Part shown: in pieces, positions 332-28,458 of the stretch
Position numbering within the stretch: position 1 is the first letter of the stretch
Layout of the letters: each line of letters begins with the position of its first letter
Origin: a virus
Taxonomy: Duplodnaviria; Heunggongvirae; Uroviricota; Caudoviricetes
Virus record (IMG/VR): IMGVR_UViG_2874968258_000008
Strand: one strand, 5' to 3'
DNA: 38,535 nucleotides
Made by a program: the position numbers and the translations under genes
Notes under the pieces: generated by a model
The model's database searches: none
The model's input: only the letters and a program-made list of their open reading frames with translations
Told to the model about the DNA's origin: nothing

Positions 332-592
332 TTAATTCTGAGGTAAAGGCAAGCTCATCTGATTGTTTCCCCTGTGTGAAGCTGGCAGATCATGCCACGG
401 GATATCTTCTGAAGAGTGAACGCCGGAGGCGTGTTTTGATGTGAATTTATGGAAAGCTTCCAGTGTTGAGAAGCATACGCCGCATTCCAGATTGTTACAC
501 TGGTAATACTTTTGCCGCACGGTGTTTGAATCATTTTCCGGACGACTGGTGCGGATACGGGCAGATGCGCCACAAAGCGGACAACGGAACAT
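332..592 (-). CDS. ogr: Ogr/Delta-family zinc-finger late-gene transcription activator
   Basis: 86-aa ORF starting MFRCPLCGASARIRTSR...YYQCNNLECGVCF, matching the CxxC...CxxC N-terminus of P2 Ogr; located downstream of D as in P2. Confidence 0.8.
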   Translation of the reverse strand: MFRCPLCGASARIRTSRPENDSNTVRQKYYQCNNLECGVCFSTLEAFHKFTSKHASGVHSSEDIPWHDLPASHRGNNQMSLPLPQN

Positions 593-835: not shown

Positions 836-2338
836 TCATGTTTTGATTTGTGCGCTAATAGAACTTTTCTGTCTTTTCTTCTGCTCTTGAATGTATGTCT
901 GCACCATTTCTGTTATGGTTGAAAATGCACTATGTTCTTCTATAGTTATTTTTAATTTAAATGTTTTAATGACCGGATTGGTAAGGTTATTTGCATCAAC
1001 TCTCACCTCAATTGCACCATTCACTTTCTTTGGTTTGTTGGCTGTATATACGAACAACGGGAATATTTCTTCTTTGACTTGATGACGCCACTCTTCGCAT
1101 TCCAGCGATACAACTTGAACTGGCTCATTTCTCTTTTCTTTATAATAAAAATCGTTTTTATCCCTTTCTGTTGGAGTAAGAGATAACAAAGGACCAATTT
1201 CTTTTGAAATTATACTGGATAGCGGTGTTTCCAAAGCTCCCCCAGCGTAAGGCATTCTTTCTGTTACGCCACATACACTACGCCATTTTCCTTTGGGGGC
1301 GGTAGGGGCTGAAGGTAGGTCAATCCTTTTGCTTTCAGTCAGCTCTTCCATTATCTCCCAATTAAATCCACACAGACGAAAATCTCCTTTTGCTGTAAAT
1401 GTTACCACAGCACGTTCAGCGATAGTATAACCTGTGTTTTGTAATAAAAACGACAGCGGGTAATTTATTGCCTTCGGATTAATATGAGTATGACAGTTTT
1501 TCAGTATTTCTTCACACTGCTTTTTCCAAAGTGGATAATGTTTTTCTTTATAAAGAGAAATATCATCTGCTGATACAGGGAAATACTCCTGTTGACTAAA
1601 TGACTTGATGATTTTTTCTAGTGATTGTGGGGTAGTTTGTTCATTGTCAAAGTTTGTAACCAATGGGAATGCATCCGTTAGTTGACAAAGCAAATTATCA
1701 ACTTCATATTCAGATAAAGCTGTATAATAAGGAAGTACAATATTTAATTGCTCGTCATCGGCTACTTTAATGCTGAAATCGGGCATAGACTGAGTGAATT
1801 GCTTCAGCTTAGCTTCCAGCAATTTAATTTGTTTATCCTTTTCATCTGGCTCAGCAGGAAGCAACCATGAAGAAGGCACTTTATAGCAGATTATATTATG
1901 TTTTATTGCTGAAAAACGTGGACCGCTATCATTGGTAATGATTGCCACCTCCGAATCTGGATCGTCAGCGCAATACCCTGCCGCAATACCAACAAAACGA
2001 TCGTCGGCCTCCTGATAATCCAATTGTTCAGATAACTGTTCACATGGTTTCAGGCTTAGATCCATGGTAAGAAAAACTCGCGGCGAGCGTTCACGAATAA
2101 CAAGAGTCATGTCAGTTGAATCAACTACTTGATTAAATAGGCTAGCAGCCTTCCTTGCTTTTTTGGATAGGCGGGAATTACCTTGCCCTTTCTGGCGGTC
2201 AATCTCTTGCTGAATGGGCCTTGTAATAATGATACATACTTCATCACAAGCAGTAATCTCGGAAAAATTTACCTGCGTCAAGTCCTTGCATTGTAGAAAA
2301 ATGTTTGAGTCTGGGAATAAATACAGCTTTTTGTTCAT
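836..2338 (-). CDS. Cargo protein, 500 aa, N-terminal PIN-like nuclease domain plus about 350 aa of unknown C-terminal region
   Basis: Long ORF in a markedly AT-rich island between D and ogr; N-terminus LYLFPDSNIFL...VCIIITRPIQQEIDR...VAIITNDSGPRF has the spaced acidic residues on predicted strand ends typical of PIN domains; RBS-like GAGG before ATG; no P2 counterpart at this position. Confidence 0.7.
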   Translation of the reverse strand: MNKKLYLFPDSNIFLQCKDLTQVNFSEITACDEVCIIITRPIQQEIDRQKGQGNSRLSKKARKAASLFNQVVDSTDMTLVIRERSPRVFLTMDLSLKPCEQLSEQLDYQEADDRFVGIAAGYCADDPDSEVAIITNDSGPRFSAIKHNIICYKVPSSWLLPAEPDEKDKQIKLLEAKLKQFTQSMPDFSIKVADDEQLNIVLPYYTALSEYEVDNLLCQLTDAFPLVTNFDNEQTTPQSLEKIIKSFSQQEYFPVSADDISLYKEKHYPLWKKQCEEILKNCHTHINPKAINYPLSFLLQNTGYTIAERAVVTFTAKGDFRLCGFNWEIMEELTESKRIDLPSAPTAPKGKWRSVCGVTERMPYAGGALETPLSSIISKEIGPLLSLTPTERDKNDFYYKEKRNEPVQVVSLECEEWRHQVKEEIFPLFVYTANKPKKVNGAIEVRVDANNLTNPVIKTFKLKITIEEHSAFSTITEMVQTYIQEQKKRQKSSISAQIKT

Positions 2339-2563
2339 TCAAACCTCAACTATGTCAATGGTGTTAGATTAATATAATAATAGTTATCAATTGGTTATCA
2401 AAGCATGATTCTTACCACCCCTGATGTCAGGTAGGAAAACACCATATGTTTCTGCTCTGTTTTTCCTTAGAAATAGGCATCCTTGCTGGAACAAAGCGAG
2501 CAGCTATATTGACTCTATGTTGTGAGTGTGTTGATCCGTTCTGAGTTAATACATTTAAGTTGC

Positions 2564-3673
2564 TCACTCTGTTTCTGCTATCCATTCCGGGATTTTTGCC
2601 TCAAGCTCAAGCTGCGTGGTAAAGCCGCTGTTATCAATGGTGTGCTCGGCTTTTGCAATAATCCAGTCCTGATTATCAATCTCGCTTTTAAATCCTGTTA
2701 CCGTGCCATGCATTTCGGGGTAGAGTTCTGCACGTCCATGCGCCAGTGTGATGGAGAATGATGCGGCTCCGCGTTGTAGCTGCTGCCACTTTGCCGCCGC
2801 TGCACGTCTTGCTGCCTGCTCGTTCTGATAAGTTTTGCGTAACACAAACACGTTGCCTTCCGCACCTTCCATATAGTCGCCTTCCCGGCTGCTGCTTTTC
2901 TCCTTTTTTGGTTTTGACGGTTTGCGGCGTTTCACGCTGACTTTTTTCTTTTTCCCGTAATTAAGATCAAGCCAGTAAGCGCGTACCCCCGTATACGCTT
3001 CGCGGTCAGCAATGCGGAACTGATGGCGATCGCCGCTGCTGCGTGTGATGGCGAACGAGGGCAACGGCTGGCCCTGTGCGTTCACGCCACCACCGGGCAT
3101 GATGAATAACAGATTACCGCTTTTTACCGTGGTGATTGCGCCCAGCATTTCCGCCATGCGCGTAAGGAAGGACATGTCGCTTTCTTCGGTCTGGTCGGCG
3201 TGGTCGATTTCGATATCCATCAGCATTTCGCTGATTTGCGGTTTCAGACCATACCGATGAGCGATGGCGGATACCACACGCTCAACGGTCACATCATGCC
3301 AGGACACCTCACGTTTAACGTTAAATTCAGCCCGAAAATCTGCGCTTCTGGCTGAAACAGTCAGCCTGTCCGGCGGTCCTTCGTGAGCGATTTCATCAAC
3401 AATGTAAGTGCCTTTTTCTGTCAGCGGTTCTCCCTTCCAGCCAATGAGAACCGTCAGGCGCGCGCCCCGTGGCGGTAGCTGCAACTGACCATCCGCATCA
3501 TCCAGCGTGATGGTGAGCTGGTCCGCCTCAAATCCCCGGTTGTCGGTCAGTGACAGGCTCATCAGGCGCTCTGCCACGCCTGACAGCGTTTTACCCTCCG
3601 CGAGAATATCAAAATCCGGCATTTTCACGGGGTCTGTGCCCTGACTGAGCAATTGCATGGTGGTGTCGGTCAT
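2564..3673 (-). CDS. D: Tail protein gpD (late control D protein family)
   Basis: 369-aa reading frame from internal ATG at 3673 preceded by GGGAGGGAG RBS (ORF track extends to 3805); sequence typical of P2 gpD / Mu gpP family. Confidence 0.85.
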   Translation of the reverse strand: MTDTTMQLLSQGTDPVKMPDFDILAEGKTLSGVAERLMSLSLTDNRGFEADQLTITLDDADGQLQLPPRGARLTVLIGWKGEPLTEKGTYIVDEIAHEGPPDRLTVSARSADFRAEFNVKREVSWHDVTVERVVSAIAHRYGLKPQISEMLMDIEIDHADQTEESDMSFLTRMAEMLGAITTVKSGNLLFIMPGGGVNAQGQPLPSFAITRSSGDRHQFRIADREAYTGVRAYWLDLNYGKKKKVSVKRRKPSKPKKEKSSSREGDYMEGAEGNVFVLRKTYQNEQAARRAAAAKWQQLQRGAASFSITLAHGRAELYPEMHGTVTGFKSEIDNQDWIIAKAEHTIDNSGFTTQLELEAKIPEWIAETE

Positions 3674-3830
3674 CTGCTCCCTCCCTGTGTGGCATGGTCG
3701 CATGTGCGTGCGGAGGGGGTTACTGCTTTTTGTTGTCGCCGTGGCGGGAGAATGGCGCAGGGGTGAGATTACGCGCGTGGTGGGTGATGATTGTTGCCGA
3801 ATCATTTAACGGATACAAGGGGTTGAAGCT

Positions 3831-5015
3831 ATGAGTGAAACTCGTTTTCATGGTGCCCGTGTTACGGAAAATACCGACCTGGTAACAGCGATTAACGATG
3901 TTGATTCCAGCGTTATCGGTATCGTGGCAACGGCGGATGATGCGGACGCGGAGCTGTTCCCGCTGAACAAGCCCACACTGCTGCCCCGCGTCAATGACGT
4001 GCTGGGAAAATGCGGAACAACGGGGACGCTTTATCGTGCGCTTAAGGCCATCGCAGACCAGGTGAGCACAAAGGTGATCGTCGTTCGCGTGGCTGAACAC
4101 AAAGAAGAAGACGGAAAAACGCAGGATCAACTGGTTATCGGTGGTTCTGAATCTGACGGCAGCTATACGGGGATGTATGCGCTGCTTGTTGCAGAGCAGG
4201 ATGAAAGCATCGGATACCGTCCGCGTATTCTGGCCGCGCCGGAGCTGGACACGGAGGCGGTGACAAAATCCCTGTGCGTGATTGCGGGTAAACTGCGCGC
4301 GTTTGTGTATGCCTCATGTCATGACTGTAACACGATGGCTGAGGCAATTACCTACCGCCAGAAATTCAACGAACGTGAGGTGATGCTCTTATGGCCGGAC
4401 TTCATCGCCTACAACCCGAAAAGTGGCAAAAACGAAACGTTCCCCGCGCCTGCCTATGCGTGCGGCCTTCGTGCGTACATTGACCATGAGCAGGGCTGGC
4501 ACAAATCGCTGTCCAACGTTCCGGTTAAAAATGTGCTGGGGATGTCCAGGCATGTGTTCTGGTCGTTGCAGGCCGAAGACAGTGATGCCAACAGCCTCAA
4601 CAACAAAGAAATCACGACCATTATTCGTCGCAACGGGTTCCGCTTCTGGGGCAACCGCACACCGGAAACGAACGCCTACATCTTTGAGGTGTATACCCGA
4701 ACCGCACAGGTGCTGGCTGATTCAATTGCGGAAGCGCAGTTTGAAACCATCGACAGTCCACTGACGCCTGCGAACGTGAAGGATGTTATCGGTGCCATCA
4801 GGGCAAAACTGGATTCACTGGTTACTGCCGGGAAACTGATTGGGGCGTCGTGCTGGTATGACGTGGTGGATAACGGCACCACGAATTTACGTCAGGGGCG
4901 CGTGCGTATTCGCTACAAATATACGCCTGTTCCCCCGCTGGAAGACATGGAGCTTTACCAGTCGTTTACTGATGAATTCTTTGGTCCCGCATTTGCGGTG
5001 CTGGGAGGTGCCTGA
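3831..5015 (+). CDS. FI: Tail sheath protein gpFI
   Basis: 394-aa ORF; conserved DADAE.FPLNKP and GTLY.AL.AIADQ motifs of P2 FI. Confidence 0.9.
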   Translation: MSETRFHGARVTENTDLVTAINDVDSSVIGIVATADDADAELFPLNKPTLLPRVNDVLGKCGTTGTLYRALKAIADQVSTKVIVVRVAEHKEEDGKTQDQLVIGGSESDGSYTGMYALLVAEQDESIGYRPRILAAPELDTEAVTKSLCVIAGKLRAFVYASCHDCNTMAEAITYRQKFNEREVMLLWPDFIAYNPKSGKNETFPAPAYACGLRAYIDHEQGWHKSLSNVPVKNVLGMSRHVFWSLQAEDSDANSLNNKEITTIIRRNGFRFWGNRTPETNAYIFEVYTRTAQVLADSIAEAQFETIDSPLTPANVKDVIGAIRAKLDSLVTAGKLIGASCWYDVVDNGTTNLRQGRVRIRYKYTPVPPLEDMELYQSFTDEFFGPAFAVLGGA

Positions 5016-5527
5016 TGGCTGTACCAAAACATCTTCGCTTTTTTACGCTGTTTGTGGATGGTGAAAACGAAGTGGGTAAGGTGACGTCCGTCACTCTGCC
5101 TAAGCTGACGCGCAAAACCGACAGCTACCGGGGTGGTGGCATGATGGGAGCGGTAAGTATTGATCTCGGCCTGGATGACTCCGCGCTTGATGCGAGCTTT
5201 GTCATGGGGGGCGCAGTTCGTGAGCTGTTCCTTAAGTATGGCGGCACGATTGACGGTACGCTGCTGCGTTTTGCGGGTGAATACTACACCGACGCTGAAA
5301 GCGACCTGTATGAAGTCGAAATGCGCGGACGTGTGACGGAAATTGATATGGGGGAAGCCAAACAGGGCGAAGCCACATCACACACTTACGCCATTAAAAA
5401 CACCTACTACAAGCTGAGTGTTAACGATCGCCCGTTGTGGGAGATTGACCTGCTGAACTTCATTTACCGGAAGGACGGCAGGGACATTGTGCCCGATCGC
5501 ATCCGTTCCGCGCTCGGGCTTGGCTGA
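5015..5527 (+). CDS. FII: Tail tube protein gpFII
   Basis: 170-aa ORF immediately after FI with ATGA start/stop overlap; P2 FII-like sequence. Confidence 0.9.
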   Translation: MAVPKHLRFFTLFVDGENEVGKVTSVTLPKLTRKTDSYRGGGMMGAVSIDLGLDDSALDASFVMGGAVRELFLKYGGTIDGTLLRFAGEYYTDAESDLYEVEMRGRVTEIDMGEAKQGEATSHTYAIKNTYYKLSVNDRPLWEIDLLNFIYRKDGRDIVPDRIRSALGLG

Positions 5528-5581
5528 TAAGTAATATGCAGGCGGCGCAGTGCGTCGCCTCTGACTGAAAGGAGTTTCCTG

Positions 5582-5947
5582 ATGAAAGAGACGAAAAACA
5601 TCGATACCGAAAACACGGTCGTTGCTGACACTGTGAAAGAAACCAGTGAGCGTGGCGTAAAACTTACCCAACCAATTGAGCGAGGCGGCGAAAAAATCAC
5701 GTATGTGGAGATCACCGGGGCTATTGAGCAGGCTGGATCTCTGCGAGATTTGTCGCTGTCTGATGTGCTGAATTTGAAAGCGGAATCCATGTTTACGCTG
5801 CTGTCACGCGTGACATCACCGCGACTGGATGAAGTGACGATCAAAAAAATGGCATCCCGTGACTTTATTCAGTTATGTGTGGTTGCCGTAAATTTTTTGA
5901 GCGGTGCGGACTCTGGCGAGAAGAACGAACAGGCGACGGAAGCCTGA
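5582..5947 (+). CDS. E: Tail assembly chaperone gpE
   Basis: 121-aa ORF between FII and the tape measure gene, position and size as P2 E. Confidence 0.8.
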   Translation: MKETKNIDTENTVVADTVKETSERGVKLTQPIERGGEKITYVEITGAIEQAGSLRDLSLSDVLNLKAESMFTLLSRVTSPRLDEVTIKKMASRDFIQLCVVAVNFLSGADSGEKNEQATEA

Positions 5948-6111
5948 TCACGGTTGTGTGCTTTGAGCACATAGAAGACTTTGTGGCGGATATTGCCGCC
6001 ATTTTTAACTGGTCGCCCGCCGAAATCTTCATGATGACGCCCGGCGAAGTGGTTAGCTGGCGTGAGCGGGCGGCACTTCGCAGCGGGAATGCAGACAATG
6101 AAGACTCTTGA
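5582..6111 (+). CDS. gpE+E' frameshift fusion (programmed -1 ribosomal frameshift)
   Basis: Slippery heptamer T_TTT_TTG at 5893-5899 in E frame; -1 frame continues open to TGA at 6109-6111 (ORF 5875..6111) overlapping the start of T, as for P2 E/E' and lambda G/GT. Confidence 0.55.
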
Positions 6112-8905
6112 TATCCGGGTCGCTTTCAGCGCCGTTGACAGGCTGACCCGGCCTGCCGAAAACGCCCGCCGCCTGATGGGGCAGTTTGGTGACTCCATCC
6201 AGCGAACGCAGGGGGCGATCAAAAATCTCGAGCGTCAGGCGCGTTCATTTGAGCGCGCCCGTGACGCTGTCAGTAAAGCGGATGCGGGCATCGTGAAAGC
6301 ACGACGCCAGCTTAACGCCCTTAATCAGTTACAACGCACGGGTACAGTGCTCAGCGAAAAACAACAAAAGCTGATGCAGCAGTTAAGCACCCGGCTTGAA
6401 CGCCTGAATGAATCGCGCACACGGGAAATTCAGAAAATGCGGGAACTTGGCGGAGAGCTGAAACGCCACGGCATTTCCCTGACAGGCAGCGATAACACCA
6501 TCCAGCAGGCCATCAGACGCACCGGACAATACAACAACCAGCTTGAACGCGAACGGCGGGCGCTTGCGCGTGTAACGCAGGCGCGTGAGCGGTATTCACG
6601 CGCGCAGGAAACAGCGGGAAAACTGAAAACAGGTGGTGCGCTGGCAACAGGTGCGGCGGCAGCGGGCGGCTATGCTGCCGGGCGTTTTTTGCAGCCCGCT
6701 ATCGGGTTCGGGAAAGAGATGTCCCGTGTTCAGGCACTGACGCGAATCGATAAAAACAGCCCGCAGTTTAAGGCGCTGCGTGAGCAGGCGTTAAAACTTG
6801 GCTCTGAAACGCAGTTCACCGCAGGCGATGCCGCCAGTGGACAGGCATTTCTTGCAATGGCTGGTTTCACACCGCAGGCCATTCAGGCTGCGCTTCCCGG
6901 CGTGCTGAGCATGGCAACGGCTGGCGGTATGGACCTCGGCGAGACGGCGGATATTGGTTCCAATATCCTGACGCAGTTCGGCCTCTCTGCTGACCAGATG
7001 GACCGGGTCGGTGACACACTTACCGCAGCGTTTACCCGTACCAACACTGACCTTCGCGCACTGGGCGAAACCATGAAATATGCAGGTCCGGTGGCGGGTA
7101 AGCTGGGAATATCGCTGGAGCAGGCCGCAGCGATGGCGGGCGTGCTGGCGAAGATGGGTATCAGGGGGAGTGATGCAGGTACAGCGTTGCGTAAAAGCCT
7201 GGCCAATCTGTCATCACCGCCAAAGGCAGCGGCAGAAGCACTGAAAGAGCTGGGGGTGTCAGTTGCTGACGCCAAAGGCAAAATGCGCCCGATGGAGAAT
7301 GTGCTGGCCGATCTCTATAAAGCCACCCGCAAATACGGGGAGGTTGACCGGGTATCGTTCTTTAAGGACATTGCCGGAGAAGAGGCTTTCACATCATTTA
7401 TGGGCCTCGTTGATGCGGCAGGTGACGGCTTCTTAGCCAAACTGAGAAAAGAACTTGAAGGCGCGCGCGGTGAGGCAGAACGCACGGCAAAGGTTATGGC
7501 CAATAACCTTGATGGCAACCTGAAATCACTCGGCAGTGCATGGGAAGGTCTGCGTATTCGCATCAGTGATCTGGTTGACGGTCCGCTGCGTTCTGTCACG
7601 CAGTGGCTCACGCGGGTTGTCTCAAAGGTGACGGCGCTGGCGCAGGCCCACCCGGCACTGACGCGCCAGTTACTGATAGCGGGAGGCGCACTGCTGGCGA
7701 CAACAGCAACGGTTGGTTCGTTGTCTCTGGTTATTGGGGTGCTTCACGGGAAGCTGGCTACGTTGCGTCTCGGTTTTTCTCTCCTGACCGAATCAATGAA
7801 TGTTGTCAGGGTTCTGCCTGCATTATGGGGAATGGTGACGGGTTCCGTTTCTTTACTTGGTGGCGCTATCGGGGCGCTGTTCAGTCCGGTTAGTCTTATC
7901 GTGGCTGCGCTTGCCGGAGCTGCCGTTCTTATCTGGAAATACTGGGATCCCATCAGGGCATTTTTTGCCGGGGTGTTCAGCGGGATTATGGAAAGGCTGA
8001 CCCCGTTGCGCGAAACCTTTGAACGGTTTGGCCCTGTTTTTGATGTCGTGCGCGATGGGATTATTCAGGTCTTTAACTGGTTTAAATCGCTGCTGTCACC
8101 GATGGAGTCCAGCAAGGAAACGCTGGATAAATGTGCCAGTGCTGGCGAGATATTCGGTAACGTTCTTGGCGGTGCGTTACAACTTGTTCTGACACCTGCA
8201 AAAATGCTACTGGATACGCTGGCGTGGATACTTGAAAAACTTGGCGTCCTTCCGGATGAAGCGGAAAGGGCGCGCAAGAAAATCGAAGACGCACAGCGTG
8301 CGGCCATTCTTCAGGACAAGGTTGCCTTGCTTCAGGGGAACCTGGCGAAAATCAATCCGCCGAAGCCTGTGGAAAATGGCAATGGCACCGGAGGTGATAA
8401 ACCCAAAGACAACAAACCGCTCACAGACAGCAATACCGGGACGCTACGCAGACTCAGCAAAATTGCTGATAACACAGGTAAGCTGGTTGATGAGACGAAA
8501 AAACGCATTGGCCCCGGCGATATTGTCTTTAAGAACCTGCCCCGCGCACTTGCTGTTCGTGGGGAGTGGCAGGAGCGGAAGATTGCGCAGGTCAGTAAGC
8601 CTGCCCCCGCAATTAATATCACACCCGTGGTCCCGGCTCCGCTGCCTCCGGCGCTGGTCCCTGTTGTTGCGGCCAGCTCCCGCCCGGTGGCGGAGGCCAT
8701 ACGCTCTCCAGTGGCATCAGTTCCTGTAACTTCCCGTAACCGGGAGCCTGTTGCCTCCGGATTTGGTGGTGAAATTCATGTTCATCTGCATAACGTTGTT
8801 ACGCAGAATCCCCGCGAACTGGCGAAACTGGTCGGTGAAATGGTCAGGGCAGAAATGGAACGGCGCGCCCGTGCCGGGCGTGGCAGTTTTTACGATAAAG
8901 ATTGA
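6089..8905 (+). CDS. T: Tail tape measure protein gpT
   Basis: About 940-aa ORF, Ala/Gly-rich with central hydrophobic segments, follows E/E'; start could be ATG 6089 or 6098 (ORF track opens at 6062). Confidence 0.85.
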   Translation: MQTMKTLDIRVAFSAVDRLTRPAENARRLMGQFGDSIQRTQGAIKNLERQARSFERARDAVSKADAGIVKARRQLNALNQLQRTGTVLSEKQQKLMQQLSTRLERLNESRTREIQKMRELGGELKRHGISLTGSDNTIQQAIRRTGQYNNQLERERRALARVTQARERYSRAQETAGKLKTGGALATGAAAAGGYAAGRFLQPAIGFGKEMSRVQALTRIDKNSPQFKALREQALKLGSETQFTAGDAASGQAFLAMAGFTPQAIQAALPGVLSMATAGGMDLGETADIGSNILTQFGLSADQMDRVGDTLTAAFTRTNTDLRALGETMKYAGPVAGKLGISLEQAAAMAGVLAKMGIRGSDAGTALRKSLANLSSPPKAAAEALKELGVSVADAKGKMRPMENVLADLYKATRKYGEVDRVSFFKDIAGEEAFTSFMGLVDAAGDGFLAKLRKELEGARGEAERTAKVMANNLDGNLKSLGSAWEGLRIRISDLVDGPLRSVTQWLTRVVSKVTALAQAHPALTRQLLIAGGALLATTATVGSLSLVIGVLHGKLATLRLGFSLLTESMNVVRVLPALWGMVTGSVSLLGGAIGALFSPVSLIVAALAGAAVLIWKYWDPIRAFFAGVFSGIMERLTPLRETFERFGPVFDVVRDGIIQVFNWFKSLLSPMESSKETLDKCASAGEIFGNVLGGALQLVLTPAKMLLDTLAWILEKLGVLPDEAERARKKIEDAQRAAILQDKVALLQGNLAKINPPKPVENGNGTGGDKPKDNKPLTDSNTGTLRRLSKIADNTGKLVDETKKRIGPGDIVFKNLPRALAVRGEWQERKIAQVSKPAPAINITPVVPAPLPPALVPVVAASSRPVAEAIRSPVASVPVTSRNREPVASGFGGEIHVHLHNVVTQNPRELAKLVGEMVRAEMERRARAGRGSFYDKD

Positions 8906-8911
8906 GGAGTC

Positions 8912-9406
8912 ATGGCCATGATGATGATCTACGGCATGTTTGTTTTTGAGCTGCGTACATTGCCGCATCAGCAGTTACAGCAAAACAAAAGCTGGCGGCA
9001 TGTGAAAAATGAACGCGTTAACCGTTCGGCAAGCTGGCAGTATATCGGTGCAGGTGATGAGCGCATCGTTCTTTCTGGTGTGCTTTATCCTGAAATTACA
9101 GGTGGCGAAGTGTCGCTGTCGCTGCTGACCACGCAGGCGTATACAGGACGACCCTGGCCTCTGATTGATGGCGTCGGGCAGATTTACGGCATGTATGTCC
9201 TGACCGAAACGAATACGACCCGCTCCGAGTTTGATCGCTACGGTAAGGCGAAAAAGATAGAATTTTCACTGACTCTTGAACGCTGTGATGAGGATTTGCG
9301 GGAGCGCCTGCAATCCTCATCGTTCAGCGATATGCTGTCCGGCTTCAAAGATAAGGTAACATCATCCCTTAACAGCGCGGCCAGTTCAGTTAAAGGGTTG
9401 TTCTGA
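8912..9406 (+). CDS. U: Tail protein gpU
   Basis: 164-aa ORF, YGMFVFELRTLPHQ N-terminus similar to P2 U; directly after T. Confidence 0.85.
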   Translation: MAMMMIYGMFVFELRTLPHQQLQQNKSWRHVKNERVNRSASWQYIGAGDERIVLSGVLYPEITGGEVSLSLLTTQAYTGRPWPLIDGVGQIYGMYVLTETNTTRSEFDRYGKAKKIEFSLTLERCDEDLRERLQSSSFSDMLSGFKDKVTSSLNSAASSVKGLF

Positions 9407-9414
9407 TTTAACAC

Positions 9415-9452
9415 AAAAACCGCTAATGGTCAGATTAGCGGTTATTTTGTTT
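9415..9452. terminator. Bidirectional rho-independent terminator between convergent U and invertase genes
   Basis: Hairpin ACCGCTAAT-GGTCAG-ATTAGCGGT flanked by A-run upstream and TATTTTGTTT downstream, so it carries a U-tract on either strand. Confidence 0.5.
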
Positions 9453-10029
9453 CCTGACTCTTCTCTATTGTTCCGATTGATTCTCCTGCGGGGTGGTAAC
9501 GATAAATCGTCGATATACCAATGCCGTAAATTATTGCCAGTTGTTTTCTGTCGTGCCCGTTTTTGATCAGCCTTGCTATTTGCTCATGCTGTTCTTTTGT
9601 CAGCTTCGGTCGACGTCCGCCTGTGCGCCCCCGTGCGCGTGCTGCCGCCAGTCCGGCCAGTGTACGTTCAACAATTAATTCACGTTCCATTTCAGCCAGG
9701 GCACCCATCACGTGGAAGAAAAAACGCCCCATTGGAGAAGATGTATCTATGCTGTCGGTCAGACTGCGAAAATTAATTCCTCGCTCCCGTAGTTCCCCGA
9801 CGAGAGAAATCAGATGTTTCATGCTTCGCCCGAGGCGATCCAGTTTCCAGACAACCAGCGTGTCACCTTTTTGAAGGCGCTTTAAAGCGCGTTTTAATCC
9901 CGGTCGGTCTGTCTTTGTCCCGCTTAATTTATCTTCAAATATTTGTTCACATCCTGCACAAACAAGAGCGTTTCGTTGCAGGTCTGTATTCTGGTCATTT
10001 GTTGATACCCTTACATAGCCAATCAGCAC
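9442..10029 (-). CDS. Serine-recombinase DNA invertase (Gin/Pin/Cin/Hin family)
   Basis: Translation LIGYVRVSTNDQNTDLQRNAL...GDTLVVWKLDRLGRS...GRRPKLT is near-identical to Mu Gin / e14 Pin; GTG start at 10029 with GGGAG RBS preferred over the upstream ATG at 10047 used by the ORF track. Confidence 0.85.
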   Translation of the reverse strand: MLIGYVRVSTNDQNTDLQRNALVCAGCEQIFEDKLSGTKTDRPGLKRALKRLQKGDTLVVWKLDRLGRSMKHLISLVGELRERGINFRSLTDSIDTSSPMGRFFFHVMGALAEMERELIVERTLAGLAAARARGRTGGRRPKLTKEQHEQIARLIKNGHDRKQLAIIYGIGISTIYRYHPAGESIGTIEKSQETK

Positions 10030-10083
10030 GCTGAATCTCCCGTCCAAAAGCGCAAATCATGTCATGCAGGCCGGAAACGGCCA

Positions 10084-10094
10084 TTATCTAAAAC
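10084..10094. repeat. Outer part of the left inversion crossover site (gix-like), separated from the rest by the IS insertion
   Basis: TTATCTAAAAC immediately left of IS copy A; joined to 11362..11376 (minus one copy of the 3-bp duplication) it reconstitutes TTATCTAAAACCTCGGTTTACAGGAA, the inverted partner of the site at 15693..15718. Confidence 0.55.
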
Positions 10095-10158
10095 TGAGGT
10101 AGCCTGAGTTTAACGGACACTCCTTCCTGAAATAGAATGGCATCAGAAGGAGCTAATA

Positions 10159-10461
10159 ATGAGCAGAAAAACCCAACGTTACTCTAAAGAGTTCAAAGCC
10201 GAAGCTGTCAGAACGGTTCTTGAAAATCAACTTTCGATCAGTGAAGGCGCTTCCCGATTATCTCTTCCTGAAGGCACTTTAGGACAATGGGTTACCGCCG
10301 CCAGAAAAGGGCTCGGTACTCCTGGTTCCCGCACGGTGGCTGAACTGGAATCTGAAATTCTGCAACTGCGTAAGGCGTTAAATGAAGCTCGCCTTGAGCG
10401 AGATATATTAAAAAAAGCAACAGCGTATTTTGCACAGGAGTCGCTGAAAAATACGCGTTAA
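10159..10461 (+). CDS. IS3-family transposase OrfA (HTH)
   Basis: 100-aa ORF; slippery A_AAA_AAG at 10418-10425 near its 3' end. Confidence 0.85.
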   Translation: MSRKTQRYSKEFKAEAVRTVLENQLSISEGASRLSLPEGTLGQWVTAARKGLGTPGSRTVAELESEILQLRKALNEARLERDILKKATAYFAQESLKNTR

Positions 10462-10496
10462 TCGAACAATGGCGACAACAATTTCCCATTGAAGCG

Positions 10497-11315
10497 ATGT
10501 GTCAGGTATTTGGTGTATCCAGGAGCGGTTATTACAACTGGGTACAGCATGAACCCTCAGACAGAAAACAAAGTGATGAGCGGCTAAAACTGGAGATTAA
10601 GGTGGCACATATCCGCACTCGCGAAACATATGGAACCCGGCGGCTCCAGACGGAGCTGGCAGAGAATGGCATCATCGTTGGTCGTGACCGACTGGCACGT
10701 CTTCGTAAGGAGCTAAGGCTACGCTGTAAGCAGAAACGCAAGTTCAGAGCGACTACGAACTCGAACCACAATCTGCCAGTTGCGCCAAATCTGCTGAACC
10801 AGACGTTCGCTCCTACAGCACCAAATCAGGTCTGGGTGGCGGACCTGACGTATGTTGCCACACAGGAGGGATGGTTGTACCTCGCTGGCATCAAAGATGT
10901 TTATACGTGCGAAATTGTCGGCTACGCCATGGGAGAGCGCATGACAAAAGAGCTGACAGGTAAAGCCCTGTTTATGGCGCTCAGGAGCCAGCGCCCACCT
11001 GCCGGGCTAATCCACCACTCTGATCGAGGTTCACAGTACTGCGCATACGATTACCGGGTCATACAGGAGCAGTTTGGTCTGAAAACATCAATGTCGCGTA
11101 AAGGTAACTGTTACGACAACGCTCCGATGGAAAGCTTCTGGGGAACGCTGAAAAATGAGAGCCTGAGCCACTATCGTTTTAATAACCGGGATGAAGCCAT
11201 CTCAGTAATACGGGAATACATTGAGATTTTCTACAATCGTCAGCGTCGTCACTCTCGTCTGGGGAATATCTCCCCGGCAGCCTTCAGGGAAAAATATCAT
11301 CAGATGGCTGCTTAA
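10497..11315 (+). CDS. IS3-family transposase OrfB (DDE integrase domain), expressed as OrfAB by -1 frameshift
   Basis: 272-aa ORF in the -1 frame relative to orfA; DDE region HHSDRGSQY...CYDNAPMESFWGTLK. Confidence 0.85.
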   Translation: MCQVFGVSRSGYYNWVQHEPSDRKQSDERLKLEIKVAHIRTRETYGTRRLQTELAENGIIVGRDRLARLRKELRLRCKQKRKFRATTNSNHNLPVAPNLLNQTFAPTAPNQVWVADLTYVATQEGWLYLAGIKDVYTCEIVGYAMGERMTKELTGKALFMALRSQRPPAGLIHHSDRGSQYCAYDYRVIQEQFGLKTSMSRKGNCYDNAPMESFWGTLKNESLSHYRFNNRDEAISVIREYIEIFYNRQRRHSRLGNISPAAFREKYHQMAA

Positions 11316-11358
11316 AAAAAGAACAAATGGTAGTGTCCGCTATTGCCAGTACACCTCA

Positions 11359-13075: not shown

Positions 13076-13118
13076 TGAGGTGTACTGGCAATAGCGGACA
13101 CTACCATTTGTTCTTTTT

Positions 13119-13937
13119 TTAAGCAGCCATCTGATGATATTTTTCCCTGAAGGCTGCCGGGGAGATATTCCCCAGACGAGAGTGACGACGCTGACGATTG
13201 TAGAAAATCTCAATGTATTCCCGTATTACTGAGATGGCTTCATCCCGGTTATTAAAACGATAGTGGCTCAGGCTCTCATTTTTCAGCGTTCCCCAGAAGC
13301 TTTCCATCGGAGCGTTGTCGTAACAGTTACCTTTACGCGACATTGATGTTTTCAGACCAAACTGCTCCTGTATGACCCGGTAATCGTATGCGCAGTACTG
13401 TGAACCTCGATCAGAGTGGTGGATTAGCCCGGCAGGTGGGCGCTGGCTCCTGAGCGCCATAAACAGGGCTTTACCTGTCAGCTCTTTTGTCATGCGCTCT
13501 CCCATGGCGTAGCCGACAATTTCGCACGTATAAACATCTTTGATGCCAGCGAGGTACAACCATCCCTCCTGTGTGGCAACATACGTCAGGTCCGCCACCC
13601 AGACCTGATTTGGTGCTGTAGGAGCGAACGTCTGGTTCAGCAGATTTGGCGCAACTGGCAGATTGTGGTTCGAGTTCGTAGTCGCTCTGAACTTGCGTTT
13701 CTGCTTACAGCGTAGCCTTAGCTCCTTACGAAGACGTGCCAGTCGGTCACGACCAACGATGATGCCATTCTCTGCCAGCTCCGTCTGGAGCCGCCGGGTT
13801 CCATATGTTTCGCGAGTGCGGATATGTGCCACCTTAATCTCCAGTTTTAGCCGCTCATCACTTTGTTTTCTGTCTGAGGGTTCATGCTGTACCCAGTTGT
13901 AATAACCGCTCCTGGATACACCAAATACCTGACACAT
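13119..13937 (-). CDS. IS3-family transposase OrfB (copy B)
   Basis: 272-aa ORF identical in translation to 10497..11315. Confidence 0.85.
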   Translation of the reverse strand: MCQVFGVSRSGYYNWVQHEPSDRKQSDERLKLEIKVAHIRTRETYGTRRLQTELAENGIIVGRDRLARLRKELRLRCKQKRKFRATTNSNHNLPVAPNLLNQTFAPTAPNQVWVADLTYVATQEGWLYLAGIKDVYTCEIVGYAMGERMTKELTGKALFMALRSQRPPAGLIHHSDRGSQYCAYDYRVIQEQFGLKTSMSRKGNCYDNAPMESFWGTLKNESLSHYRFNNRDEAISVIREYIEIFYNRQRRHSRLGNISPAAFREKYHQMAA

Positions 13938-13972
13938 CGCTTCAATGGGAAATTGTTGTCGCCATTGTTCGA

Positions 13973-14275
13973 TTAACGCGTATTTTTCAGCGACTCCTGT
14001 GCAAAATACGCTGTTGCTTTTTTTAATATATCTCGCTCAAGGCGAGCTTCATTTAACGCCTTACGCAGTTGCAGAATTTCAGATTCCAGTTCAGCCACCG
14101 TGCGGGAACCAGGAGTACCGAGCCCTTTTCTGGCGGCGGTAACCCATTGTCCTAAAGTGCCTTCAGGAAGAGATAATCGGGAAGCGCCTTCACTGATCGA
14201 AAGTTGATTTTCAAGAACCGTTCTGACAGCTTCGGCTTTGAACTCTTTAGAGTAACGTTGGGTTTTTCTGCTCAT
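13973..14275 (-). CDS. IS3-family transposase OrfA (copy B)
   Basis: 100-aa ORF identical in translation to 10159..10461. Confidence 0.85.
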   Translation of the reverse strand: MSRKTQRYSKEFKAEAVRTVLENQLSISEGASRLSLPEGTLGQWVTAARKGLGTPGSRTVAELESEILQLRKALNEARLERDILKKATAYFAQESLKNTR

Positions 14276-14331
14276 TATTAGCTCCTTCTGATGCCATTCT
14301 ATTTCAGGAAGGAGTGTCCGTTAAACTCAGG

Positions 14332-14745
14332 CTACCTCAGTGAGTCCCATAGCTGGGTTTTATCCCTGACGAGCTGTAGCAGGCTTTGCTTTTCATTTTC
14401 CGCTTGTTGCCTCTGCTCTTCCCCGGTATAAGTTCGCTTTATCACTACGCCATCTTTGAACATCCATTTACCTGAAATATCAGCCCGGCGATTTGCTGTA
14501 ATATCAGGAACCTCAACGACGCTTGCGCCTTCCGGATTAATTGCTGAAACATCCTTTTCAATACAAATAATAACGCCGTTGTGGTCATAGACCATTTTCA
14601 ACGTATCAGGCTGAAAGTTCTTTTGTTCCTCATACCAGTTTTTCCCATCCTCTGTATAAAGCCATTTGATGTTAAATTGTTTCGTTAGCTGGTATTGCTC
14701 TTTTGTTTCAGGATTACCAGCAGAAATGTTTTTTAAGTGCATCAT
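14332..14745 (-). pseudogene. G: Tail fibre assembly gene G, 5' portion, truncated by IS copy B
   Basis: 137-aa ORF whose last two codons and stop lie in the IS terminus; about 40 aa shorter than paralog G' and missing the conserved C-terminus found at 12945..13075. Confidence 0.7.
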
Positions 14746-14747
14746 CG

Positions 14748-16718
14748 TTAAATACTCCCCGCGTTATACCACGTCCCATTAATGCAATACTGAATTGGCC
14801 TTGCCTGAGTTGTATCAATTAGTTCATCTCTGTTTGAGTTAACGGAACCGGTAACAACATAACCTGACCTGTCAGACCATCCGGGACCATTCCATGTCTG
14901 AACAGATAACAGACCACCAAGGCGAATACCTGTAATAAACCTTGAGTTACATTCTGCCTGCGTATATGCACCAACATCTCCCGCAGAGGGTTTGCGGGTT
15001 GTGGTGTAAAACTCTGACCAGTCAGCTTCAAAGCCATAACCATCACGCGCTGAACGATAAAAAATACCGCCGTTCCTGTAATTCACGCGGAACTGTACAG
15101 CAGGGCAGCTCCCCGTATTCATATTGAAGTGGAGGATTAATGTCGATGCGCCACCAATGTTTGCGTTATAGACCCCGCTATTCCAGTTCCAGCCAACAGC
15201 TTTATCATTTCCGACAGTGCTTCCTGTTTGCCCTAAAGCAAATGCAGGTTGTTGATTTTTCGTGTTGTAGTCTCGTCGCCAGCCAGGAGCGTAAGCATCA
15301 CCATGATTAATATAAGTGAATTGAGCGTTAGTAATTCCGCCACCGCTGGACGTGCTCGGCGTGGTAACGCGTATGGTCATTGCGCCGCGAGTGCCAATAA
15401 CTTCCACCACAGCACCTGCAAGACAAATATTTCCGCAACCTGTATCTGTAATGACCTTATTATTTGCATAAGCCCATGAGCCTTTGCACATCCAGTAAGG
15501 ATGGTTAAATGCTCCCTGACTCTCCAGCCACGAAATAAATTGCGCGGTTGTCCAGACCTGACTATCGCCACCAATATTCAGCCATGAGCTATATGCGCGG
15601 CAGGCACCAATATTTTTGGTGAAGGTATCTTTCCCCGGAATATCTGCGCCGTTCTGGTTTTTCTGTAATGCGCCAGAAGCCTGATTTACCGTTTCCTGTA
15701 AACCGAGGTATTCGATAACGGCGGCAACGGTCGATTTCGCAAGAATATCCCGCCCGACTTTTGTCAGGGTTGCCAGGCTGGCGACATCATTCCCCGTAAA
15801 ATACGGAAACCTGTCTGCCGCAGTAGCAAGCCCCGCCAGCGCCGTCAGAGTGGCATCTTTCGGTTGCTTACCCGCAAGCGCGTTAGTCATGGTGGTCGCA
15901 AAATTCGGGTCGTTGCCCAGCGCCGCCGCCAGCTCGTTCAGTGTGTTCAGTGCATCAGGCGAAGAGTCTACAAGTGCGGCAATCGCAGCCATAACGAAAG
16001 CCGTGCTTGCGATTTGGGTATTATTCGTTCCCTGTCGCGCAGTTGGTGTTGTTGGCGTTCCGGTCAGTGCCGGGCTGTTTAATGGGGCTTTCTTGTTCGT
16101 TTCATCCATTACTGCCTTAACGGCTTTTGGTGTCGCTGCCAGCGTTTCAGACGTGCTGTTGGTGGCGTTGCTGAGCTGGACAAGGCCTTTTGCGGTCAGC
16201 GAGGCGTCCGGGTGACGTCGTGACTGTTCATGCTCTTTCAGTTTGTCATCCACGTAATTCACTGTGGCCATCACCATGGTGTTATCCACGGTAAGCGCCA
16301 CAGTGGCAGTGCTGGATACGGTCAGAATGGTGCGAAATGTTTGTGCACGTCCGGATCCTTCGGCAACGGTTGGCTTGTAACTTTCGGCAGTATTGCCTAC
16401 CGCGATCAAATCGCCGTGCTCATCAAACACACCAATTTCCCGGATCCAGAATCCGCCCGTTTCAGGAGGAATAACCAGCTCCGCAATAATGTGGTTCTGA
16501 TGTGTTGCGTCCAGGGTGACGCGATTAACGGTATGTCGCCACACCTCATGCACAAGACGGGTCTGCTTACTGTCTGGCGTGGGTAAAGTACCGCCGCCGT
16601 CACCCACGGCCATATGTGTCAGGCGGACAGGTTTCCCATCTGGCGCGGTTGCCTGCGCTAATTTTTTTGCACCCGTATCGGTGATAATGGTTTTAAATTT
16701 TCGTGTTGTGGTACTCAT
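14748..16718 (-). CDS. H: Tail fibre protein gpH (constant N-terminal part fused to currently expressed variable part Hv)
   Basis: 656-aa ORF; N-terminus [23 protein letters not shown] typical of P2 H; crossover site lies inside the gene at codons around 337-345. Confidence 0.9.
15693..15718. repeat. Right inversion crossover site (gix/cix-like) inside gene H
   Basis: TTCCTGTAAACCGAGGTATTCGATAA; first 17 nt identical to my recollection of the Mu gix site (TTCCTGTAAACCGAGGTTTTGGATAA), 22 of 26 overall; inverted copy at the start of Hv'. Confidence 0.7.
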
Positions 16719-25082: not shown

Positions 25083-25236
25083 AGTTTTTGCCCCTCTGAC
25101 TGGTTCTTCAGTCATGATGGCAAAGCGTAACAGGCTGATACAAAGGGCTTTTGTTGTAAGAAAACGGCCAGAACAGGGGGTTAAGGAGAACGGTTTCGCG
25201 CGCGGGTAATCTTCCTGTAATTACTCAGGGGGAGCA

Positions 25237-28085: not shown

Positions 28086-28458
28086 ACTCTCCAGCTCCTG
28101 TATCAGTCAGATAATTTCACGACGCTTTCCTGCTGATTGCCATCATCGACAGTCAGACTCTTACGCAATCCCACCTCGTTGACTGCATATTCTCGCCGTC
28201 TCAGTGCGATTTTGACGGCCTTACCTTTCACCCCATCAAATCAAAAGCCCTCACGTCTTTTTCACGCTCAGCGTGAGAAATACAGCCATTCTGTTGTATC
28301 TCTGCGACATCGTTCAGGGAATGCTATTTACCCCCTGAAACGCGGGCTGTTCCCCCGTCACCTGCGCGCAGAAAAAACGCGTTTTTTTGTGCATGCACGG
28401 ATCCTTGACGGATCCAGCCGCCACGCGGGCCGGAAGGGCAAAAAGTCGTTCAAAAAAA

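Follow-up and report, generated by a model that had tools for sequence, protein, structure and literature searches.

The window, that is the whole stretch of 38,535 nucleotides analysed here, is a P88-like (Xuanwuvirus, Peduoviridae) prophage in which the tail genes FI to U are turned against D, ogr and the other late genes. This is a fixed layout inherited throughout a large clade of P2-like phages of Enterobacterales, and we consider it very probable that it goes back to one old inversion of the F operon which left D in place and included the promoter PF; the origin of the layout would then be a single inversion in situ. The assignment to Xuanwuvirus is based on 96.5% nucleotide identity to P88 over 97% of positions 2400-10200, in one piece and with matching strands, within a comparison to P88 that covers the D-to-invertase region and the tail-fibre segment.

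Gene content and strands of the late region

The P2-like contractile-tail module of the window is complete (Table 1), comprising FI, FII, the chaperone E/E' with its -1 frameshift, T, U, D and an activator of Ogr/Delta type. The canonical P2 order FI-FII-E-T-U-D-ogr on one strand is not found, since FI to U are on the plus strand and D and ogr on the minus strand. A preliminary description made from the sequence had placed FI to U (3831-9406) opposite D, ogr and the late genes G to O, and both the ORF map and the Pfam domains agree with it. The ORF map has H, I, J, W, V and the genes that follow as far as N and O on the minus strand, where the late genes other than D and ogr form the V-to-G and O-to-S sets. 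D is set apart from the F operon and is divergent from FI, and the block from FI to U is an intact P2-type F operon without D. An E/E' gene pair is also annotated in P88, and the start of T at 6098 overlaps the end of E' (6111).

Table 1. Features of the tail-gene block and its flanks in the window
Feature	Position	Strand	Basis or remark
ogr-type late activator gene	332-592	-	Pfam Ogr_Delta, E = 5e-14
D (tail/baseplate hub)	2564-3673	-	Pfam Phage_GPD
D-FI spacer (control region)	3674-3830		157 bp, between D start and FI start
Candidate -10 of the D promoter, GACCAT	3694-3699	-	centred 46 bp from dyad centre
Putative Ogr-type dyad, TGTCGCCGTGGCGGGAGA	3734-3751		TGT-N12-AGA, one mismatch to TGT-N12-ACA
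Candidate -10 of the F promoter, GATGAT	3786-3791	+	centred 46 bp from dyad centre
FI, tail sheath	3831-5015	+	Pfam sheath domains
FII, tail tube	5015-5527	+	Pfam Phage_tube, E = 2e-46
E	5582-5947	+	read from sequence and ORF frames
E', -1 frameshift extension of E	5582-6111	+	-1 frame open to 6111; sequence and ORF frames
Slippery T-TTT-TTG of E/E'	5893-5899	+	read from sequence
T, tape measure	6098-8905	+	Pfam PhageMin_Tail; start set via P88 annotation
U, tail protein, last gene of block	8912-9406	+	Pfam Phage_P2_GpU, E = 8e-39
Two-way intrinsic terminator of the F operon and the invertase gene	9418-9443	both	10-pair stem, T runs
Gin-type DNA invertase	9442-10047	-	Pfam Resolvase and HTH_7

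The D protein matches, at 99% identity, a protein cluster with 6052 members that carries the source name "phage late control D family protein". A 413-aa D reading frame beginning at 3805 was rejected as an extension made by the ORF caller, because the true start is the ATG at 3673 behind the ribosome-binding site GGGAGGGAG; the limits of the D-FI spacer in the preliminary description (3674-3830) are therefore correct. The ogr gene is located downstream of D, and the two genes share a strand in all related loci. The cargo between D and ogr is a 500-aa PIN-domain protein in the window, which had no match in PADLOC or NCBIfam, whereas P88 has a hok/gef-type gene at this place. The window further differs from P88 by two IS600 insertions in its tail-fibre segment. 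At the far end of the block, U is convergent with the invertase gene, whose nucleotide sequence is 91-96% identical to gin of Mu and D108, and the two-way terminator that had been proposed between them is present as a hairpin serving both strands.

The block agrees with the F operon of P2 (FI-FII-E/E'-T-U-D, transcribed from PF) in its genes and their internal order, in the -1 frameshift of E/E', in the overlap of T with the end of E', and in an activator-dependent promoter that contains a dyad and precedes FI, which in the window is predicted. It differs in that D stands outside the operon with a divergent promoter region of its own, likewise predicted, and in the inverted orientation of FI to U with respect to D, ogr and the V operon. 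The order in P2 is collinear, as the preliminary description had stated, and so is that in Fels-2 and phiCTX; the description was also right that one inversion of about 5.8 kb relates the P2 order to the layout of the window.

Distribution of the layout among phages and prophages

Comparison of positions 2400-10200 with deposited phages by megablast recovered the stretch from D to the invertase gene as a single collinear piece of 94-97% identity in P88, Citrobacter phage phiSM, Xuanwuvirus P884B11, 500465-2, 520873 and 503458. Gene order is the same in P88, phiSM, P884B11 and 500465-2 (Xuanwuvirus), and the annotated strands in P88 and the other phages checked are identical to those of the window. 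Induced P88 was purified from plaques and sequenced from particles, and imaging showed it to be a myovirus (PMC5285337); phiSM is reported to be a fully functional, active temperate phage (PMC6456863). Since viable P88 and phiSM carry this arrangement, it belongs to viable phages. The more distant SEN5 is also an intact, inducible, plaque-forming relative with the arrangement of the window (PMC5261728).

The same stretch was found in 1349 of 5426 complete E. coli genomes, about a quarter of the total, counting those that contain at least 80% of the query in one place. The actual junction of D with FI is intact in 1110 E. coli genomes. A synthetic junction, in which the start of D is joined with the end of U as in a restored P2 order, is intact in 0 of the 1413 E. 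coli genomes that match its halves. These counts exclude both an assembly artefact and a switch at the population level. A mis-oriented contig segment has nothing in its favour beyond the unusual gene order relative to P2; closed genomes from independent assemblies and DNA from phage particles hold both junctions in single aligned pieces, and we give this explanation next to no probability.

For a wider view, D homologues were aligned and the alignment was used to fetch 160 loci from species-representative genomes and viral contigs, to which P2, Fels-2, SEN5, phiCTX, VP58.5 and a Klebsiella Reginaelenavirus phage were added; the proteins of the window were then placed on all loci with tblastn. 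The sampling comprises the best 80 matches per collection, and rare exceptions may occur beyond them. Within this sample, FI, FII, T and U are opposite D in all 144 loci whose D is 59-99% identical to that of the window, and the strand of D also carries ogr, H, I, J, W and V in the same loci. The 24 loci whose D is no more than 54% identical, P2, Fels-2, phiCTX and VP58.5 included, are without exception collinear (again among the best 80 matches per collection). The loci with the inverted layout span more than 20 genera of Enterobacterales plus Aeromonas, with Escherichia, Salmonella, Citrobacter, Klebsiella, Enterobacter, Kosakonia, Serratia, Pantoea, Erwinia, Pectobacterium, Brenneria, Symbiopectobacterium, Edwardsiella, Hafnia, Yersinia, Providencia, Morganella, Xenorhabdus and Photorhabdus among their hosts. 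In SEN4 and SEN5 (Senquatrovirus, D 63% identical to the window) and in the Klebsiella Reginaelenavirus phage (D 70% identical), FI to U are inverted and the D-FI spacer has about 157 bp, as in the window.

The preliminary description gave most weight to a recent, one-off inversion in this prophage, and named a natural arrangement of the lineage as its second choice. A single flip of 5.8 kb does restore the P2 order. The layout is nevertheless kept in 144 loci down to 59% identity in D, in isolated phages of three genera and in the 1349 complete E. coli genomes, and the sequences at the junctions are conserved functional elements, all of which makes a recent event highly unlikely. The second choice was right, given that the inducible, plaque-forming P88, phiSM and SEN5 are arranged in the same way.

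Neighbour-joining trees were built for D, which lies outside the block, for FI and U, which lie inside it, and for the baseplate gene J, with sequences filtered at 93% identity. In each of the D, FI and U trees the two layouts are divided by one clean split, in keeping with one old inversion, and the P88-type loci group as a clade when phiCTX serves as outgroup. That phiCTX, VP58.5 and Burkholderia phages are collinear points to the P2 order as the ancestral one, and the P88 order would derive from a single old event. The J tree does not separate the two layouts; this fits mosaicism in the J module, and the late region as a whole may not have been inherited strictly vertically.

This incongruence of the J tree, together with the mosaic nature of P2-like genomes and the 91-96% identity of the adjacent invertase and tail-fibre module to Mu and SfMu, would also suit a different history, in which the block from FI to U was acquired as a foreign module and inserted in reverse instead of being inverted in place. 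A foreign module is at odds with the divergence of its genes, as FI (about 45-49% identity to P2-type loci) and U (38-49%) have diverged from P2 to about the same extent as D (49-54%). Moreover, the FI and U trees have the same split as the D tree, and the predicted late promoter of P2 type still precedes FI. Module replacement is accordingly an improbable explanation, to which we would allow some small weight, and inversion of the resident F operon is preferred.

Junctions of the block and the neighbouring invertase

The position of the Gin-type invertase gene beside the right junction, with two IS600 copies within 4 kb of it, raises the question of a programmed or recurrent inversion driven by either of them, in which case the block would be a switch. 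Full- and half-site scoring for gix and hix gave values at the junctions that are not above the background of the window (best 11/18 and 10/18). Cryptic gix sites, for which the preliminary description had proposed a search, are not supported, and an inverted 26-bp gix/hix pair is absent from the ends of the block. The true gix sites belong to the tail-fibre segment, one at 15693-15718 and the other split by IS600 at 10084/11359-11376. No inverted repeat above chance connects the two junctions, in agreement with the preliminary description; the best linking pair has 26 nt at 77% identity and lies outside both junction intervals (3674-3830 and 9407-9441).

As for insertion sequences, none is present in either interval, so that part of the preliminary description stands, with the correction that the window has two IS600 copies elsewhere. 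These are located in the tail-fibre segment at 10095-11358 and 13076-14339, each with a 3-bp target duplication of its own, and P88 lacks both of them, yet has the same layout. Both orientations of the block were not found within either set: the flipped junction occurs in 0 of 1413 E. coli genomes, and one orientation is seen in 144 of 144 loci of the clade.

Two relatives separate the invertase from the orientation of the block. SEN5 has the inverted layout without an invertase, and its U converges directly on the tail-fibre assembly gene G. Salmonella phage Fels-2 (Felsduovirus) resembles the window in its succession of H, an invertible tail-fibre segment, the invertase, the F genes, D and ogr, whereas its order is the collinear one of P2, in which FI comes after the invertase and shares its strand, and its D is only 54% identical. 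The invertase is therefore unrelated to the orientation of the block, being its neighbour and not the cause, and a switch made by the invertase or the IS copies is scarcely credible.

The right junction instead has a recurrent feature of another kind. In 85 of 89 non-redundant relatives, a stable hairpin is present within about 100 nt after the U stop codon, often only a few bases away, and many of them are flanked by an A tract on the near side and a T tract on the far side. Their sequences vary between subclades, and such hairpins are consistent with a two-way terminator that the converging transcripts would share.

The D-FI spacer as a candidate two-way late promoter

In a P2-type Ogr-dependent late promoter, transcription starts about 55 bp downstream of the centre of a TGT-N12-ACA dyad. 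With this consensus, drawn from knowledge of the P2 literature and from the annotated sites of the P2 record, two exact matches were found in the whole window and none in the D-FI spacer. The view that the spacer lacks an Ogr site was dropped, since the alignment of relatives reveals a variant with one mismatch at the conserved position. A generic sigma-70 scan of the spacer did not find a promoter, as expected for activator-dependent late promoters.

In an alignment of 40 non-redundant D-FI spacers of relatives, the architecture of the spacer is strongly conserved around a central dyad, TTGTTGT-N-ACAAC, and the flanking sequence is variable. The exact TGT-N12-ACA is present in the spacers of 49 of 111 relatives compared with 4% of shuffled sequences, and a dyad with at most one mismatch occupies the homologous position in 109 of the 111, in every case 74-88 bp ahead of the start codon of FI. 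An nAnnAT hexamer centred at a distance of exactly 46 bp from the centre of the dyad is found on the FI side in 98 of these 109 relatives and on the D side in 78. On the FI side, the -10 element is followed by a conserved CGAACTCA near the predicted FI start. The elements of an Ogr-dependent late promoter are thus present in the window as a dyad with one mismatch and as symmetric -10 elements around one site.

Based on this conservation and on the analogy with P2, we infer that the D-FI spacer is a two-way Ogr-dependent late promoter, in which Ogr would bind at the dyad and transcription would start near 3798 on the plus strand and near 3687 on the minus strand. Two features speak against this model, namely the short predicted leader of D (about 14-16 nt) and the right half-site, which is AGA in the window in place of the consensus ACA; the same TGT-N12-AGA variant occurs at 25155, in the O-P spacer of the window.

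The closest counterpart is the PP/PO pair of P2. In the P2 record, one activator site (3057-3087) is annotated for both pO and pP, which start at 3127 and 3016, 55-56 bp from the site in each case, and the -10 of PO is GAAACT at -12 to -7. The spacer of the window resembles this pair in its central dyad and in its -10 elements about 45-46 bp to each side, and the start codons are 157 bp apart in comparison with 173 bp in P2. Differences are the location elsewhere in the genome, the flanking genes (D and FI instead of P and O), and the function, which for the spacer is predicted.

The following scheme is proposed for the inversion in situ. An ancestral inversion of the F operon would have excluded D and moved PF along with the operon, so that the symmetric Ogr operator of PF came to lie beside D. 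The single dyad would then serve two mirror-image late promoters, the rightward one driving FI to U and the leftward one driving D and then ogr, in an arrangement that copies the geometry of the PP/PO pair with its one activator site. At the far end, transcripts of the F operon and of the tail-fibre and invertase genes would stop at the common two-way terminator. The arrival of a symmetric operator in front of D may be the reason why the inversion was tolerated. On balance we favour, with reservations, a joint reading in which the inversion created a second two-way late promoter (PD/PF) and a separate D-ogr late unit, and in which the resulting layout is derived and marks a large clade of Peduoviridae comprising Xuanwuvirus, Senquatrovirus, Reginaelenavirus and many unnamed prophages.

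The layout as such is ordinary and already known, being visible in the annotated reference genomes of at least three ICTV genera. The literature searched on P88, phiSM, SEN4/5, Burkholderia P2-like phages and carotovoricin does not comment on the orientation of FI to U; Casjens & Grose 2016, which was outside this search, may describe it. Our addition is a modest one, and consists only of the predicted two-way late promoter and the clean split of the clade.

The main value of the case is as a caution that P2 is not a template for all P2-like prophages, and that an "inversion" of this kind should not be flagged as a rearrangement or a misassembly in genome scans. The layout provides a clean marker by which a clade of P2-like prophages that is very common can be told apart from the P2, 186 and Fels-2 types. 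Finally, the D-FI spacer offers a compact, testable example of how one activator site may serve two late promoters.

Gene content and gene calls around D

The interval between D and ogr carries cargo that varies among relatives, with a D-to-ogr distance of 1.1 to 5.2 kb. Phage P88 has a hok/gef-type gene at this position, whereas the window has a gene of low GC content (about 38-39%) whose 500-aa product carries a PIN_4 domain at its N-terminus; neither PADLOC nor NCBIfam gave a match for this product. A sigma-70-like promoter-like site in this region belongs to the cargo gene itself.

Features of the window discussed in this part
Feature	Position	Strand	Remark
PIN_4 cargo gene	836-2338	-	between D and ogr
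Promoter-like site	2401-2374		sigma-70-like
N-terminal extension of D	3674-3805		from ORF caller
Gin-type invertase gene	9442-10047	-	
IS600 copy 1	10095-11358		1264 bp, 100% identical to annotated IS600
Tail-fibre variable segment	11359-14760		
IS600 copy 2	13076-14339		1264 bp, 100% identical to annotated IS600
Tail-fibre assembly gene	14332-14745		partial Caudo_TAP
TGT-N12-AGA dyad	25155-25172		O-P divergent spacer
TGT-N12-ACA dyad (exact)	28292-28309		downstream of Q

On the other side of D, the conserved D-FI promoter region is overlapped by annotated small ORFs in phage P88 (gp50, positions 2529-2660 of locus L001) and in Salmonella phage SEN5 (SEN5_27, positions 8800-8952 of locus L165), and likewise by the extension of D proposed by the ORF caller; all three are probably spurious gene calls.

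One prophage-bearing contig among the related loci, NZ_JBQPOM010000071.1, is labelled as Vagococcus sp. WN89Y, a Firmicute. Its prophage has a complete enterobacterial P88-type layout, in which the FI-U block lies on the strand opposite to D, and its D is 98% identical to that of the window. The contig is probably a contamination or comes from a mislabelled assembly.

Further candidate Ogr-type dyads

Further candidate dyads of the Ogr type in the window include one in the O-P divergent spacer and an exact one downstream of Q. The dyad in the O-P spacer is probably the PO/PP activator site. The distance between this dyad and the O ORF's first ATG is only about 48 bp, so the true start of O may be located further downstream.

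IS600 insertions in the tail-fibre region

The two IS600 copies are mutually inverted, being detected in the window as a near-perfect inverted repeat of 1269 nt, and each has a target duplication of its own, 3 bp long (AAC and GTG). Copy 1 interrupts the invertase-proximal gix recombination site, which is regenerated as TTATCTAAAACCTCGGTTTACAGGAA when the element is taken out, and copy 2 cuts short the tail-fibre assembly gene. Tail-fibre switching is probably disabled in this prophage, and possibly tail-fibre assembly as well.

Probable exchange of baseplate and tail-fibre modules

Among the related loci, the two layouts, P88-type and collinear P2-type, are separated in the trees of D, FI and U but not in the tree of the baseplate gene J, which suggests recombination of the baseplate and tail-fibre module across both clades. 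The invertase gene shares 91-96% DNA identity with gin of Mu and D108. For the tail-fibre variable segment, identity is 96% with its counterpart in Shigella phage SfMu and about 90% with the C segments of phages P1 and P7. These sequence identities point to a recent exchange of modules among P2-like, Mu-like and P1-like phages.
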